Virus record (IMG/VR): IMGVR_UViG_3300000292_000170
Direction: 5' to 3' (one strand)
Length of the DNA: 5,387 bases
Origin: a virus
Lineage: Duplodnaviria > Heunggongvirae > Uroviricota > Caudoviricetes
Made by a program: the position numbers and the translations under genes. The notes beneath the pieces were generated by a model that saw nothing but the letters and a program-made list of their open reading frames with translations, searched no databases and was not told where the DNA came from. This document shows positions 1 through 5,387 of this stretch, one piece after another (within the stretch, counting starts at the first letter, position 1; the number at the start of each line of letters is the position of its first letter).

Positions 1-462
1 ATGCTGGGTGATTGTTTCCCTCCTGATTTTAAGGCTAATTTTAGTCGTGAAAGAGGTATATCACCCGGTGATGTATTGTATCTTCATTGTGATTTTACGA
101 CCCCACCTAAAGTAAAATATATGGTGGTTGTTTGCTGTGAACCTCTTTTAGTTCTTCTAATAAATTCAGATATAAATGAATTTATTAAGAGAAACAATGA
201 TCTTATGGCTTGTCAGGTCGAAATTAATAGAGAGGACCATGATTTTCTTAAATGGGACTCATTTGTTAATTGCATTGAGGCTCATGCTGCTTTCGATCTT
301 GAAATTATTAAAGAGAAAATAGCCATCCAATATGGCGACGTGCTAAAAGGTCGCATTACAGATCATTGTATGAGACAAGTTCGATGTGCAGTTGAGATAT
401 CTAAAATCATGGTTAAACGGCATAAAAAACTGATACTCGCTGCTCTTCAACATTATGAATAA
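1..462 (+). CDS. Hypothetical protein, 153 aa, markedly AT-rich orphan ORF convergent with the prophage operon; possible moron/cargo gene
   Basis: Uninterrupted ORF from ATG at 1-3 to TAA at 460-462. Composition is visibly AT-rich compared with the rest of the window (by-eye estimates of about 35% versus about 50% GC), with Lys/Ile/Asn-rich codon usage. No family motif recognised by eye. Followed directly by a hairpin terminator. The start coincides with the window edge, so the true 5' end cannot be verified. Confidence 0.55.
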   Translation: MLGDCFPPDFKANFSRERGISPGDVLYLHCDFTTPPKVKYMVVVCCEPLLVLLINSDINEFIKRNNDLMACQVEINREDHDFLKWDSFVNCIEAHAAFDLEIIKEKIAIQYGDVLKGRITDHCMRQVRCAVEISKIMVKRHKKLILAALQHYE

Positions 463-490
463 ACCCACCTTTGGATGGGTTTATTCATAT
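461..490. terminator. Putative bidirectional rho-independent terminator between convergent genes
   Basis: Inverted repeat aaaccca (461-467) / tgggttt (476-482) around a short loop, followed by T-rich tttattcatattctattt on the plus strand. On the minus strand the same stem is followed by tttattcat. It sits in the 33-bp gap between the stop codons at 460-462 (+) and 496-498 (-). Confidence 0.45.
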
Positions 491-495
491 TCTAT

Positions 496-768
496 TTAAA
501 TGAGCCTTTGTTTATGGGTTCTGACCCTTTCCCACTCAGCACGCCCTTCTTCTCGCCTTTTGTCTATGTATTCCGCAAGATCCTGAATATTGATGCAACG
601 TTTTGCTTTTTGTGATGTGCCGATGCGATATGTTGGAACGGGCAACTTACAAGCGTTTGCTTTTGCTTCTGCCGTGGCTGGACTCATGCCAAAGTACTTT
701 TGGCTAACTGCTGAGAGTTCAATGTTAGGGGTATTGAATTCAGCCATCAGTAAAAACAAGGTGTTCAT
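496..768 (-). CDS. PrtN-family (pyocin-activator-like) small DNA-binding protein, putative excisionase/recombination directionality factor
   Basis: Minus-strand ORF ending at TAA (496-498). The translation contains the KLPVPTYRIG...IQDLAEYID region, which I recognise as characteristic of PrtN/excisionase-like phage proteins (recognition by eye, unverified). The ORF track starts it at GTG 795, which has no Shine-Dalgarno sequence. ATG at 766-768 is preceded by GGAG (ATGGAGAAAATTATG) and is the best-supported start, giving 90 aa. ATG at 778-780 is an alternative. Confidence 0.6.
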   Translation of the reverse strand: MNTLFLLMAEFNTPNIELSAVSQKYFGMSPATAEAKANACKLPVPTYRIGTSQKAKRCINIQDLAEYIDKRREEGRAEWERVRTHKQRLI

Positions 769-804
769 AATTTTCTCCATCAAAACCGGCTGCACCCGGG
801 AAAA

Positions 805-1377
805 TCATAATTCTGTGCTGGTGGCAGGAATTAATTTCTGCCAGATAGCGGAAACATATTTTGCCTGATGACGGGCATCGGCCAGGGCGTTGTGCCGTTC
901 GCCATCGAAAGGCATGTCCATTTTGGGGGCGAATCCGATGGAACGCCCAAGCGTAACGATCGTGCGTACATCGTGGTCATTCCAGTATGCCCACGGGCAG
1001 ATTTGTCCTGCTCGCTCATAAGCTCCACGTAAAATTACGTTGTCGAAGGTGGCCCCGTTACCCCAGACTTTTAAATATTTTGTATTGTCTGCATGCTGAT
1101 TAATGAAATGGCTCAGTTCAGAGAGTGCATCGCTGATCGACAAAGTATCATCAATACAGATTGCAGCTCGTGCTTCAGGGCTCTGTTTCAACCACCACAG
1201 GATGGTATCGCCGTCAGGTGTGGCCCCTTGCTCCATAGCACTTTCCAGGCTGACAACCGTATAGAATTCTTGTCCGATGTCTCCGGTTTCTGGGGTGAAG
1301 AACACCGCGCCAATGGAAACGATTGGTGCATCCTTATTTTTCCCCATCGTCTCAAGGTCGATCATTAAGTTGTTCAT
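805..1377 (-). CDS. DEDDh-family 3'-5' exonuclease (DnaQ-like fold), phage-type
   Basis: 190-aa ORF. N-terminal IDLETMG matches the Exo I D-x-E motif and C-terminal HNALADARH matches the Exo III H-x4-D motif of DEDDh exonucleases. Strong Shine-Dalgarno AGGAGGTG (reverse complement of 1383-1390) sits 5 nt upstream of ATG 1375-1377. The start overlaps the upstream stop as TAATG. Confidence 0.75.
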   Translation of the reverse strand: MNNLMIDLETMGKNKDAPIVSIGAVFFTPETGDIGQEFYTVVSLESAMEQGATPDGDTILWWLKQSPEARAAICIDDTLSISDALSELSHFINQHADNTKYLKVWGNGATFDNVILRGAYERAGQICPWAYWNDHDVRTIVTLGRSIGFAPKMDMPFDGERHNALADARHQAKYVSAIWQKLIPATSTEL

Positions 1378-1688
1378 TACTTCACCTCCTGCGTTTCTTT
1401 GCTGCTGTGAATTCGCCAGTTACCGACGCCTTCCCATTCAAACTGGCGGTTACTAATTCGCGTCCAGCCCCTGCCGAAAAGCAAATCCAGATACCAGTAT
1501 TTTAAAGTTCTGATAATTGCTCTTACAGTTGGTTTGCATCCAGAAGTCTTTGATGCGCAAATAAAGCACCGAGTTATGCTCATGGCCTCTACAAAAGGCC
1601 AGATAAACCAAACCCAGATGCAAAGAGCCACGAACAACATGAGCGCAATGTTAGCCACTAAGCCAGACCAGTGCAGATAATTGCTCAC
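1377..1688 (-). CDS. Small Trp-rich membrane protein (hypothetical), 103 aa
   Basis: GTG start at 1686-1688 preceded by a perfect AAGGAGG (reverse complement of 1695-1701) at 6-nt spacing. One clear hydrophobic segment, LVANIALMLFVALCIWVWFIWPFV, predicts a transmembrane helix. GTGA overlap with the upstream gene's stop and TAATG overlap with the downstream exonuclease start. Confidence 0.6.
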   Translation of the reverse strand: MSNYLHWSGLVANIALMLFVALCIWVWFIWPFVEAMSITRCFICASKTSGCKPTVRAIIRTLKYWYLDLLFGRGWTRISNRQFEWEGVGNWRIHSSKETQEVK

Positions 1689-1924
1689 TGGTTGCCTCCT
1701 TTACGGATCTGCGCTGCGATGCGCGAAAAAAAAGACTCCCGCGTATGACTGTTAAGAGCTGGCGCGAACGCTGCGTTAAGAACGGCAGCATCACAGCCGT
1801 CATCGATATAGAGCGCAATTTTTTTCTCCAGGCGCGCTTTGGCTTCCTGCAACTGCATACCCCGGCACGCACGCGGGATATACTCAGCAATTTGAGCGAT
1901 AGATTTTTCGTTCTGTTTAAACAT
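1685..1924 (-). CDS. Hypothetical phage protein, 79 aa
   Basis: ATG at 1922-1924 preceded by GAGGTGA at about 5-nt spacing. The stop overlaps the next gene's GTG start as GTGA. No family recognised. Confidence 0.55.
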   Translation of the reverse strand: MFKQNEKSIAQIAEYIPRACRGMQLQEAKARLEKKIALYIDDGCDAAVLNAAFAPALNSHTRESFFSRIAAQIRKGGNQ

Positions 1925-2120
1925 GCTTCACCTCGATAGGCTTGATGGTGTCGATCAGTAGTCGGAGGCGCGTATTTTCTGCAAAGTGGCGGCGTCCGGT
2001 TTCTTTGTGGTAAAACTCGTTTTTGCCGACGACCCACATCCGCTCTGTCTGGTGAAGTTTTTTTACCTGCGGGCCGTCTTTGGTGATCACAATGCCGGTA
2101 TGGGTTTTTACGATTGTCAT
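1917..2120 (-). CDS. Hypothetical phage protein, 67 aa
   Basis: ATG at 2118-2120 preceded by GAGGTGGTGG. The start overlaps the PAPS-reductase-like stop as ATGA, and there is an 8-nt overlap with the downstream gene. No family recognised. Confidence 0.55.
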   Translation of the reverse strand: MTIVKTHTGIVITKDGPQVKKLHQTERMWVVGKNEFYHKETGRRHFAENTRLRLLIDTIKPIEVKHV

Positions 2121-2995
2121 GCCACCACCTCTTCGAATTTCAATTCCAATTGATCACCCCAGATTTCACATGACTCTGAACACGAGCCGGTATCGAATCG
2201 CCTGGCTTGCACCATCGCTTGATACAAATTTCTGTAGTCGCTGTCGGCATACATTCTGGCAATCCCGTCAAGGCTCAGATGACCACGGTACATAACGTCT
2301 TTATTTGTCTTTCGGTGACCATCCCGGACGTGTTTACCTGTAACCAGCTCATTAAAAACTCGCATCAGACCAGGTTCGTCTTTACATGCAAGCCCCAGCT
2401 TTTGCGTGGACTTTTTGATGCAGAAAACACAGTTCCCGAGGTGCTCCGGGATTTGCAAATCAAAAGGTTGTTTATGCCACCACCGGATAACATCCGAGTT
2501 ATCAAAATCAGATAGCTCGGCAAGATACCGGACGCCCGATTTCGGTTTCAGCCTACGAGGTTCGTCTGCACGAATACCCAGCCATGTGATGTAATTCCCT
2601 CGTCCGAAATGGTCATCGCAGTATTTTGTGAAGGGGGTGAGTTTTAATCTGTCAGTGCAGAACGCGCCGCCGATGTATGGCGTGCCATATTTTTTTACCA
2701 TGTCCATAAACGGTTTAAGCACCGGCATTCGTGTCTGAATATCCTTTGGTTCCCATTCCGTATAACCATTTGGCTGCCCAAGCTCTGGATTTATATCGAC
2801 CTGCAACACAGTTAGCGGTATGCCCCAGAACTTCACAACCTCCCGAATAAAGCGGTATGTCAGCGGATGTTCGCAACCGGTATCCATAAAGATGTAGCAG
2901 ACGTTATTGCCAGCCTTTCTTTGTTCTTCCATCAGGTGAACAAGATATGCAGATGTTCTCCCGCCAGAAAAACTAACTACATGAGTTATGCACAT
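2117..2995 (-). CDS. Phosphoadenosine-phosphosulfate (PAPS) reductase family protein / PP-loop ATP pyrophosphatase-like, phage-encoded
   Basis: 292-aa ORF with N-terminal PP-loop motif VVSFSGGRTSAYL (SGGxxS), typical of the PAPS-reductase/DndC-like/ATP-sulfurylase superfamily. Cysteine pairs CVFC (residues 189-192) and CSESC (271-275) could ligate a metal or Fe-S centre. The start overlaps the upstream YfdR-like stop by about 10 nt. Confidence 0.8.
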   Translation of the reverse strand: MCITHVVSFSGGRTSAYLVHLMEEQRKAGNNVCYIFMDTGCEHPLTYRFIREVVKFWGIPLTVLQVDINPELGQPNGYTEWEPKDIQTRMPVLKPFMDMVKKYGTPYIGGAFCTDRLKLTPFTKYCDDHFGRGNYITWLGIRADEPRRLKPKSGVRYLAELSDFDNSDVIRWWHKQPFDLQIPEHLGNCVFCIKKSTQKLGLACKDEPGLMRVFNELVTGKHVRDGHRKTNKDVMYRGHLSLDGIARMYADSDYRNLYQAMVQARRFDTGSCSESCEIWGDQLELKFEEVVA

Positions 2996-3522
2996 TTGCG
3001 TAATTCCGATAACTCGTTAAAACGTTCCATAAACATCCCGTAGGCATGGCCTGGTGACAGTGGAATAACTTTGAACATCTCTGTTGCCGGGATGCCTTCC
3101 AGTACAGGCCAGAAAGAGCCATCATCAAGCCCGAGATCGCGGCGTTCGGTTGCCAGCATAATGAGATCGGCATATTTCACTGGCGTGCTCATAACAGGAG
3201 GTAACCCGTATTTCTCACGGATTACGGCGTCTATTTTTTCTTCCATCCGTTTATAGTCAGGAAGAGGTCGTTTCAGTGGCGCGGGGATGTCCTGGCAATA
3301 TGCTTCTGTTGCATCATGCATTAACGCTTCGAAAGCAAACTCCTGCGGTACCAGCTGGCTGCAAAGCACCGCATGTTGGGCGACGCTGTAGAAGTGTGAA
3401 AGATGCCCTGCAAAGCGACAGATATTTGAGAGGGAAACTGCGATATCGTTAATCACGATGTCGTCTTTATTTATCTTGTCATAATAAAAATGCTTCCCGG
3501 AAAAAGTTTTAATAAATGACAT
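2986..3522 (-). CDS. yfdR: HD-domain phosphohydrolase, YfdR-like 5'-deoxynucleotidase
   Basis: HD-domain signature: H in LSHFYSVAQH, HD in EALMHDATEAY, and downstream Asp residues. The ORF track begins at GTG 3549, which has no Shine-Dalgarno sequence. ATG at 3520-3522 is preceded by GGAGAACAAA, giving 178 aa, which equals the length I recall for E. coli CPS-53 YfdR. The symbol is assigned from recalled family, length and gene order, not from a search. Confidence 0.7.
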   Translation of the reverse strand: MSFIKTFSGKHFYYDKINKDDIVINDIAVSLSNICRFAGHLSHFYSVAQHAVLCSQLVPQEFAFEALMHDATEAYCQDIPAPLKRPLPDYKRMEEKIDAVIREKYGLPPVMSTPVKYADLIMLATERRDLGLDDGSFWPVLEGIPATEMFKVIPLSPGHAYGMFMERFNELSELRKCA

Positions 3523-3615
3523 TTTGTTCTCCACGTATATGCGCTGCACCGCGCTGAATTCTGGTAAAAGGAAGCTCTCACCATCCGGTGATTATTGAGT
3601 TAATTACGTTTCCAT

Positions 3616-3637
3616 AAATGCCCCCGCAGGGGCATTT
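3616..3637. other. GC-rich perfect hairpin in the yfdQ-yfdR intergenic region (possible attenuator, processing or binding site)
   Basis: aaatgcccc (3616-3624) / cgca loop / ggggcattt (3629-3637) forms a 9-bp perfect stem. There is no U-tract beyond the stem on either strand, so it is not a classical intrinsic terminator. It lies in the 127-bp gap between the stop at 3650-3652 and the start at 3522. Confidence 0.4.
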
Positions 3638-3649
3638 GCAGTAATGAAA

Positions 3650-4168
3650 TCAGGCGGTGAAAGTACCAATAAAGGTTTCGACTTTGCTGTCTTTGAATTT
3701 CTCAACAAGCAGATCACGAAATTCGTTAGCCATTTCTTCCTGCACCGCTTCCAGCTGAATAATGCGCAGAACCAGTACAGGACGATCGCCAGTGATAATG
3801 CTGAGGCGTAATTTAAACGGACGTTCTTTCAGGCCTTCAAACGGAACGCATTTAAATTCAAATGCCACTGGCATAATATCTTTGGTCTTCGCTTCGACAG
3901 ACTCCATCAGGGAGCGTTTGCCGCTGAAGTCATTGTCTTCAAAATCAGCGGTCTGGTTTGCTTCAATCGTGATTTTACGGACTGCCGCAGCCGCTTTTGT
4001 TGCCTGAATGGCATCACCATTAGCATCAAAGCCCACAAGGTAGTCGGCCCAGTCTTCAATCCATTCTGCCAGTGACTTCTGGGAGTTACGCTCGCCGTTA
4101 ACAGACAACAGAGCAGAGAACGGTGCTGTCTTTTTCAGTTTGAGAGTGGCGGTGTTATCTGCGTGACC
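3650..4168 (-). CDS. yfdQ: DUF2303/YfdQ-like phage protein, C-terminal 172 codons plus stop, truncated upstream by a scaffold gap
   Basis: Continuous reading frame from the N-run boundary at 4168 down to TGA at 3650-3652. The ORF-track start at 4108 is a TTG inside this frame. The codon boundary at 4168 is in frame with the N-terminal fragment at 4654-4959; joined, they give 825 nt, i.e. 274 aa, the length I recall for YfdQ. Symbol from recalled length and gene order only. Confidence 0.6.
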
Positions 4169-4178
4169 NNNNNNNNNN
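4169..4178. other. Run of 10 N: scaffold/assembly gap
   Basis: Exactly 10 ambiguous bases, a fixed-length spacer typical of scaffolders. Confidence 0.9.
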
Positions 4179-4368
4179 GTCTTTGGTCTTCGCTTCGACT
4201 GACTCCATCAGGGAGCGTTTGCCGCTGAAGTCATTATCTTCAAAATCAGCTGTCTGGTTCGCTTCAATTGTGATTTTACGGATCGCCGCAGCCGCTTTGG
4301 TTGCCTGAATGGCGTCACCATTAGCATCAAAGCCCACAAGGTAGTCGGCCCAGTCTTCAATCCATTCT
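4179..4368 (-). repeat. Divergent partial copy (about 95% nt identity) of the yfdQ-like segment 3878-4067, flanked by N-gaps; probable alternative-allele contig
   Basis: Direct alignment at offset 301 shows about 9-10 substitutions in 190 nt. The encoded peptide ([27 protein letters not shown]...) differs from the primary copy by a single V/I change, so the substitutions are almost all synonymous. Confidence 0.8.
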
Positions 4369-4378
4369 NNNNNNNNNN
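4369..4378. other. Run of 10 N: scaffold/assembly gap
   Basis: Exactly 10 ambiguous bases. Confidence 0.9.
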
Positions 4379-4643
4379 TGGTTCATCGATAGTACCCAGG
4401 TTAAGTACACTGACGGCACGCATATTATCGGCGTCGATAAAGCAGCGGGTGCCTTCATCTGCAAGATCTTTAGAATAACGGGTAAAATCATCGATGCTGG
4501 CAGTGGAAAGTGCACCACGGAAACGGAAGCGATTTAAATTAAATTTTTCCAGATCATGAATGCGGAAATTCTCAGGCAATGCCACAGCATCGGCACCAAT
4601 CTTACTGATAATTTCATTAACACCCTGAGCAGAAATAAGGGCA
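4379..4643 (-). repeat. Divergent partial copy (about 95% nt identity) of the yfdQ-like segment 4654-4918, flanked by N-gaps; probable alternative-allele contig
   Basis: Alignment at offset 275 shows about 12 substitutions in 265 nt, all synonymous: the peptide [68 protein letters not shown] is identical in both copies. Confidence 0.8.
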
Positions 4644-4653
4644 NNNNNNNNNN
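4644..4653. other. Run of 10 N: scaffold/assembly gap
   Basis: Exactly 10 ambiguous bases. Confidence 0.9.
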
Positions 4654-4959
4654 AGGCTCATCAATAGTACCCAGGTTAAGCACACTGACGGCACGCATAT
4701 TATCGGCATCGATAAAGCAGCGGGTGCCTTCATCCGCAAGATCTTTAGAATAACGGGTAAAGTCATCGATGCTGGCAGTGGAAAGCGCACCACGGAAACG
4801 GAAGCGATTTAAATTAAATTTTTCCAGATCATGAATGCGGAAATTTTCAGGTAATGCCACTGCGTCGGCACCAATCTTACTGATAATTTCATTAACACCC
4901 TGAGCAGAAATAAGGGCATGAATTTGATTAATTGCGGTTGCGTCTAAGTTCTGAGACAT
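4654..4959 (-). CDS. yfdQ: DUF2303/YfdQ-like phage protein, N-terminal 102 codons, truncated downstream by a scaffold gap
   Basis: ATG at 4957-4959 preceded by GAGGA at about 6-7 nt spacing. The frame runs to the N-gap boundary at 4654, ending on a complete codon (...NLGTIDEP). The ORF-track call 4534..4959 continues through the N-run into the variant copy and is an artefact beyond 4654. Confidence 0.6.
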
Positions 4960-5024
4960 AATAAGTCCTCACTATATAAAGATATTCAGTGATGAGATAA
5001 ATAATCAGTTAATTAAGAACGATA

Positions 5025-5387
5025 TTAATGACCTGCTGCGCGGAGTTTTCCGTCAGGCTCACCGGCAAGAGTCAGTAATTGTCCCTGGTCTTCCTGCAGA
5101 ATAGTCAGGCGACCACCGCGATTGACATACATCGGCGTTTCGGTGGTGTCTTCTTCGGAAATTTTCCCGCGGTTAGTCGGACGAACATATGAGAGTTTGT
5201 GTTTTATTTTCACACGGTTCTCATCAAACGGTTCGATTTCCAGGTTGAGCGAGACCTTACCTTTGGTTTTCGTGTTCATCACACCGGAAGCGACTTCACT
5301 GAGAACTGCGCCGATTTTGGTTTCAAATACGCCGCCGTCCAGCTCCCCGATAAATGCCTGCACATCAGTACTGTGTTCGCTAGCCAT
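5025..5387 (-). CDS. Hypothetical phage early protein, 120 aa (position corresponds to yfdP in a CPS-53-like arrangement)
   Basis: ORF from ATG at 5385-5387 (window edge, so upstream context is unseen) to TAA at 5025-5027. Same strand and operon as the downstream genes. No family motif recognised. Confidence 0.55.
   Translation of the reverse strand: MASEHSTDVQAFIGELDGGVFETKIGAVLSEVASGVMNTKTKGKVSLNLEIEPFDENRVKIKHKLSYVRPTNRGKISEEDTTETPMYVNRGGRLTILQEDQGQLLTLAGEPDGKLRAAGH

Follow-up and report, generated by a model that had tools for sequence, protein, structure and literature searches.

The genes yfdP, yfdQ, yfdR, yfdS, and yfdT form a cluster in the prophage CPS-53 (KpLE1) of E. coli K-12, whose arrangement is taken here from its description. 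An oversupply of yfdQRST is reported to inhibit the initiation of replication through the binding of YfdR to DnaA (PMC4776307), and the functions of yfdQ and yfdP are not known (PMC12315714). A structure named 'YfdQ Protein' (PDB 9o7m) contains 36 chains of a 274-aa homolog of YfdQ (E 1e-44; 1.2e-44). The number of chains suggests that this homolog may form a large homo-oligomer, and a literature search found no paper mentioning PDB 9o7m.

The DNA analyzed here (hereafter the window) is a 5,387-nt stretch of a viral record, and it is the early-left operon of a lambdoid prophage. In the relatives, the prophage site adjoins zur and a dusA remnant. The yfdQ gene of the window (3650–4959, minus strand) lies between two genes on the same strand. 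The downstream neighbor, yfdR (2986–3549), encodes an HD-domain 5'-deoxynucleotidase, matches PHROG 318 at 3.7e-110, and is annotated as yfdR in the relatives. The upstream neighbor, yfdP (5025–5387), encodes a protein identical to the 120-aa YfdP of L008 (GCA_036281865.1), the closest relative of the flanks, and its counterparts in the relatives carry PF27127. Beyond yfdR, the Pfam and PHROG searches identified, on the same strand, a PAPS-reductase-like gene, three small ORFs, a 3'-5' exonuclease gene, and a PrtN-type excisionase gene. The NCBIfam search gave no match for YfdQ, YfdP, YfdR, or a 153-aa ORF at the left end of the window.

Three other features of the operon were observed. Just past the yfdQ stop codon and before yfdR, there is a perfect G+C-rich inverted repeat (GCCCC-GCA-GGGGC, in AAATGCCCCCGCAGGGGCATTT, 3621–3640), which looks like an intra-operon terminator or an RNA stem-loop. 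The PAPS-reductase-like gene (292 aa, 2117–2995, minus strand) is found in the window, L008, KGu016, and UID2309220009, whereas otherwise similar prophages at the same site, among the loci L003–L012, have a 120-aa ORF or DUF551/Ead-Ea22 genes in its place; with this gene replacement, the early-left operon is a mosaic. The 153-aa ORF (1–462, plus strand) is without a match in Pfam, PHROG, or NCBIfam. In ten related loci, it is located at the prophage edge, 5 nt 3' of a SocA_Panacea-domain gene on the same strand, and it could be the partner in a Panacea-type toxin-antitoxin pair.

As written in the window, yfdQ is broken into four pieces by three runs of N (4169–4178, 4369–4378, and 4644–4653), each of which is exactly 10 N in length. 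The long contig on the left contains codons 200–274 and the stop codon (3650–3877), codons 137–199 together with the third base of codon 136 (3878–4067, hereafter A1), and codons 103–136 (4068–4168, the 101 nt between two variable zones), and ends at 4168. The long contig on the right starts, exactly on a SNP, with codons 15–102 (4654–4918, A2), followed by codons 1–13 and the first two bases of codon 14 (4919–4959). Between them lie two short pieces on the same minus strand: an alternative allele of codons 137–199 (4179–4368, B1) and an alternative allele of codons 15–102 (4379–4643, B2). The second spacer stands in place of the 101 nt of the alternative allele (allele B) that are equivalent to 4068–4168. 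B1 aligns with A1 without gaps and with 10 mismatches in 190 positions (94.7% identity), and B2 aligns with A2 likewise, with 12 mismatches in 265 positions (95.5% identity). Such identity over 190 and 265 nt is too high for chance, and a chance similarity of the pieces was thus rejected. A repeat search over the whole window found A1/B1 and A2/B2 as the only families of direct repeats. A 141-aa ORF that runs across the N runs was absent from the protein collection in an exact look-up.

When 3650–4168 is joined directly to 4654–4959 on the minus strand, an ORF of 825 nt (274 codons and a stop codon) is restored. Codon 103 begins with base 4168 and codon 102 ends with base 4654, so that the join falls on a codon boundary; the protein reads ...NLGTIDEP up to the join and continues in frame beyond it. 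Of the 22 substitutions between the A and B segments, 21 are synonymous, and the sole amino-acid change is V165I, arising from position 3982 (C/T on the plus strand). An initial annotation of this DNA, made from the sequence alone, had reported the three N runs, the two copies of about 95% identity, the restored 274-aa ORF, and a set of substitutions that were synonymous with one V/I exception. All of these coordinates and counts were reproduced by recomputation. Its description of the gene as YfdQ-like also proved correct: the joined product matches Pfam DUF2303 (PF10065) at 2e-92 (309.7 bits against a cut-off of 26.6), with residues 7–272 spanning positions 2–269 of the 269 profile positions, and matches PHROG 210, a family of unassigned function, at 2.6e-120.

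Each of the two alleles is a known, intact gene subject to purifying selection. In a comparison with 5,426 complete E. coli genomes, yfdQ was found at 95% identity or higher in half of them, at 3,446 places in 2,723 genomes, with up to 6 copies per genome. The joined gene with 100 nt of flank on each side aligned to complete genomes as a single ungapped alignment with 100% coverage, and the yfdQ genes of CFT073 and KGu016 each have a length of 825 nt. These results bear out the direct join proposed in the initial annotation, with no additional unique sequence between 4168 and 4654. Among the 2,501 complete genomes covering at least 80% of the query, the best matches listed were single ungapped pieces. 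A1, the 101-nt segment 4068–4168, and A2 are each 100% identical to CFT073 (L001) and to copy 1 of ExPEC XM. B1 and B2 are each 100% identical to one and the same yfdQ gene in KGu016, FDAARGOS_1300, FDAARGOS_1304, AH19D088, and BEN5202. B2 has 100% matches to L008, KGu016, and nine other complete genomes, and B1 likewise to L008, KGu016, and others. In KGu016, the B1 and B2 matches are 101 bp apart, which is the length of 4068–4168. Because both pieces hit one gene at this distance, we consider them to be parts of a second intact allele, the middle and ends of which are not written in the scaffold. The earlier view of the copies as a second functional allele thus holds. Allele B is rare, with 100% matches in about 10 of the approximately 2,500–2,700 matching records.

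The protein encoded by the long contigs (path A) is that of CFT073 (WP_000081287.1), and the protein encoded through the short pieces (path B) is that of KGu016 and L008 (WP_000081280.1); both bear the RefSeq name 'YfdQ family protein'. In ExPEC XM, these two proteins are encoded in two prophages of the same genome, by genes with 22 nucleotide differences, mostly at the same sites as those in the window.

The ends of the pieces are informative about their origin. B1 starts on the first SNP, its last SNP is at 4314, and it ends at 4368, 54 nt further on. B2 also starts on its first SNP and ends (4643) 54 nt past its last SNP (4589). The right contig starts on a SNP (4654), and the left contig ends (4168) one base short of that SNP. 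This geometry fits the branch nodes of a node-centric de Bruijn graph from which the leading k-1 bases are left out. Of all odd k values between 21 and 127, k = 55 alone is compatible with both B pieces, and we infer that the assembler used k = 55 and wrote its nodes without the leading k-1 bases. Since a SNP-free stretch of 59 nt corresponding to 4787–4845 gives B2 five shared 55-mers, a strict k = 55 graph would split this piece, and read- or pair-based resolution must be assumed to have kept it whole. Velvet pads gaps shorter than 10 bp to 10 N and omits the leading k-1 bases inside scaffolds. A literature search for this '10 N' convention of Velvet returned nothing relevant. SPAdes with K = 55 was also considered: its 56-mer edges would give a tail of 55 nt and an untrimmed head, against the observed tail of 54 nt and head of zero. 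A node-centric k = 55 graph fits better.

The spacers contain no distance information. The real distance from B1 to B2 is 101 nt, but only 10 N are present, indicating that the spacer is a fixed or minimum one; paired-end gap estimates were rejected as the origin of the N runs on the same ground. The order of the four pieces is that of a sort by start coordinate. These features support the earlier proposal that bubble contigs were placed in a scaffold gap. In addition, positions 4112 and 4921 are isolated sites that differ between the CFT073-type sequence and the type of the zur/dusA-side prophage (L-type), and neither is covered by a second piece; the window agrees with CFT073 at 4112 and with the L-type at 4921. 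This observation fits a procedure in which single-SNP bubbles are merged and multi-SNP bubbles are kept.

The possibility that the strain contains a second copy of the region was addressed with the Logan contigs. The 103-aa ORF at 1377–1688 (minus strand) has histidine at residue 6, where L008 has tyrosine (site 1673), and the exact protein was found on only two contigs in the whole collection, both from Logan. This variant therefore ties the window to the run ERR3986692, of which a literature search found no mention in any paper. One contig from this run, ERR3986692_8809 (a k = 31 assembly), is 100% identical to window positions 1–3085 and ends there, which makes it likely that the run comes from the same strain. 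The chromosomal sequence flanking the prophage on this contig matches L008 at 100% identity over 4,009 nt. Exact look-ups of the 103-aa protein, the 153-aa ORF, and the 172-aa and 102-aa yfdQ fragments retrieved no scaffold with the N runs of the window, and this contig was the nearest result. The first 31-mer common to the window and the CFT073-type locus starts at 3056 (a branch at 3055/3056, inside yfdR), and a k = 31 unitig must consequently stop at 3085. None of the other loci compared predicts a break at this position. It is thus very likely that the strain also holds a CFT073-type yfdR–yfdQ copy. No unmerged bubbles were found at 3266–3746 in the window, though they would be expected if the second copy were CFT073-type through all of yfdR. 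The presence of two related prophages in one genome, one of the two sources suggested in the initial annotation, is therefore plausible and indirectly supported; the other, a mixed sample, fared poorly, as described below.

Taking these results together, we consider yfdQ very probably to be undisrupted in the cell and its broken form to be a scaffold artefact arising from copies in two co-resident prophages. The results directly show the geometry of the duplicated pieces, the direct join, the natural occurrence of both alleles, the match of the flanks to a same-clone genome with allele B (L008), and the CFT073-type core of the long contigs. The artefact probably arose as follows. The strain would carry at least two lambdoid prophages, each with an intact 825-nt yfdQ: one in the prophage beside zur and the dusA remnant (L-type, represented by the window flanks) and the other in a CFT073-type prophage (C-type). 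The two copies would be identical over stretches longer than the assembler k-mer and about 5% apart in codons 137–199 and 15–102. Identical stretches would then collapse, and the divergent zones would form bubbles too long or too divergent for merging. The long contigs would take one branch per bubble, the remaining branches would be left over as orphans of 190 and 265 nt, and a scaffolding or ordering step would line up the four pieces with 10-N spacers of fixed length between them. It appears that the long contigs followed the branches of the other prophage, which would make the main path chimeric.

This last step concerns the question of which allele is native to the locus. Outside 3878–4918, the window differs from L008 at only two positions in approximately 4.3 kb (1673 and 5181). 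At the left side of the variable core, 3650–3877 is 100% identical to L008, KGu016 (L002), and UID2309220009 (L013), and departs from CFT073 at 3659, 3680, 3692, and 3746; this end of the long left contig is L-type. At the right side, 4919–4959 is L-type again: base 4921 agrees with L008 and KGu016 but not with CFT073, and 4919–5387 has one difference from L008 as compared with seven from CFT073. Inside 3878–4918, all 23 differences of the long contigs from L008 are CFT073-type, and L008 itself has allele B. These comprise 10 differences in A1 from L008 and KGu016, all at the A/B SNP positions, a single difference (4112) in 4068–4168 from the same two genomes, and 12 differences in A2 from L008. 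Because the core is CFT073-type and the ends are L-type, the long contigs must switch type within the shared stretches 3747–3877 and 4865–4920. Allele B, on the other hand, is what accompanies these flanks in L008 and in KGu016-like prophages. When compared with the 5,426 complete genomes, path A was at best 99.0% identical, in one ungapped piece, and the yfdQ part of the left contig was also 99.0% identical at best, whereas path B was 99.8% identical to four complete genomes, again in one ungapped piece.

The identities of the two paths, the rarity of allele B, and its linkage to the flanks led us to think that the native gene quite probably runs through the B pieces (3650–3877, B1, 4068–4168, B2, and 4919–4959), in which case the main path would be a chimera with the paralogue. 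The initial annotation had regarded the long contigs as representing the gene and the short pieces as foreign to it; the comparison with L008, a genome of the same clone, suggests the reverse, and the pieces that the annotation would discard are probably the native ones. The ORF restored from the long contigs is intact but probably chimeric at the nucleotide level, with a protein identical to a known one.

An alternative explanation for the chimeric main path is that the long contigs are right. The prophage on the zur/dusA side would then have acquired a CFT073-type yfdQ core by gene conversion or double crossover, allele B would reside in another prophage, and the B fragments would have been placed here only since they map here. 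Several observations favor such an explanation. The yfdQ gene is mosaic among prophages, as exemplified by UID2309220009, which combines L-type ends with a third core type. The left contig is continuous from the L-type end via 3747–3877 into A1, which would normally need read support, and a wrong turn from the L-type flank into the C-type branch would span 131 shared nt. If read pairs guided the scaffolding, a good assembler should not err in this way, and a true recombinant is therefore possible. Furthermore, a placement obtained by reference-guided ordering would be uninformative on linkage. Against this, allele B is rare and nevertheless linked to just these flanks in L008 and the KGu016-like prophages, its location elsewhere in the genome would need a reciprocal swap or a third copy, and the exact junction of the L-type 3650–3877 with A1 occurs in none of the 5,426 complete genomes (99.0% identity at best). 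We therefore regard the long contigs as unlikely to represent the locus correctly. The corresponding biological event, a recent reciprocal exchange or gene conversion of a yfdQ core of approximately 560 nt to 1 kb between co-resident prophages, appears improbable. If it did occur, the window captures recombination between prophages in one chromosome, and the sister genome GCA_036281865.1 keeps the parental arrangement.

It is also conceivable that the second allele came from a second E. coli strain through a mixed culture or contamination, and not from a second prophage. A bubble of about 5% divergence would also be expected from two strains at a common locus. In a mixture, however, variants should be found genome-wide, but the remaining approximately 4.3 kb of the window lacks alternative pieces and matches a single clone at 99.95% identity. 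Moreover, the end of the k = 31 contig at 3085 is consistent with a copy whose left flank differs, as would be the case in another prophage, and co-resident yfdQ copies are common in closed genomes. We thus consider a mixture very unlikely. A real local rearrangement, in which partial tandem duplications interrupt yfdQ and each N run is a short unsequenced gap, is hardly credible: although the scaffold at face value has the copies side by side in the same orientation, its junctions are N runs of exactly 10 N throughout, a constant offset of 54 nt ties the ends of the copies to SNPs, the copies differ by 5%, with all but one of the 22 substitutions synonymous, and are each 100% identical to a different natural allele (a recent duplication would be near-identical), and the closed genomes, in which the best matches listed are single ungapped pieces, show no such arrangement among those matches, in agreement with the initial annotation, which had also argued against a tandem duplication.

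The preferred reading, two co-resident copies that were assembled into one broken gene, is accompanied by a recurrence of the same break in other assemblies. The exact 172-aa (codons 103–274) and 102-aa (codons 1–102) fragments are present as 'DUF2303 family protein, partial' in many NCBI drafts, and belong to clusters with about 1,300 members, most of which are partial. The exact 172-aa product was found on contigs in 49 blocks of a public contig collection, derived from several assemblers, and the contigs that were read with this product end 0–2 nt from the position equivalent to window 4168. Assemblies thus routinely break at the boundary of codons 102 and 103 wherever two alleles of yfdQ are present together.

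Biologically, the locus contains nothing new: the two alleles were known before, and the disruption does not reflect the biology of the gene. Its significance lies mainly in data hygiene, as annotation of the scaffold will turn an intact, conserved prophage gene into several partial genes or pseudogenes. Repair by deletion of the short pieces probably gives a chimeric nucleotide allele that is absent from complete genomes. Pseudogene counts, pangenome clusters, and SNP calls at yfdQ are systematically affected where two lambdoid prophages co-reside.

Compared with the known systems, the window proteins are full-length members of the YfdQ family (DUF2303) and show no difference from it at the protein level. 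The yfdR–yfdQ–yfdP order of the early-left lambdoid operon of the relatives is also kept, and the scaffold representation alone is broken. The yfdP, yfdQ, and yfdR genes are homologous to those of CPS-53 (KpLE1) and are arranged in the same order, and one fragment in the collection bears the name 'CPS-53 (KpLE1) prophage protein'. Unlike CPS-53, the prophage of the window is located at the zur/dusA-remnant site and has the PAPS-reductase-like, exonuclease, and excisionase genes past yfdR. With respect to the assembly, the window resembles the bubble or collapsed-repeat contigs that de Bruijn graphs yield from multi-copy prophage genes in its fixed 10-N spacers, its colinear ungapped pieces, the ends tied to variants by k-1 = 54, and the recurrence across independent drafts. 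Removal of either set of branches leaves a sequence colinear with closed genomes (99.0% identity for path A and 99.8% for path B). Two differences distinguish the window from such contigs: the alternative branches remain in the scaffold rather than being discarded or reported separately, and the main path seems to follow the branches of the paralogue, giving a chimeric consensus.
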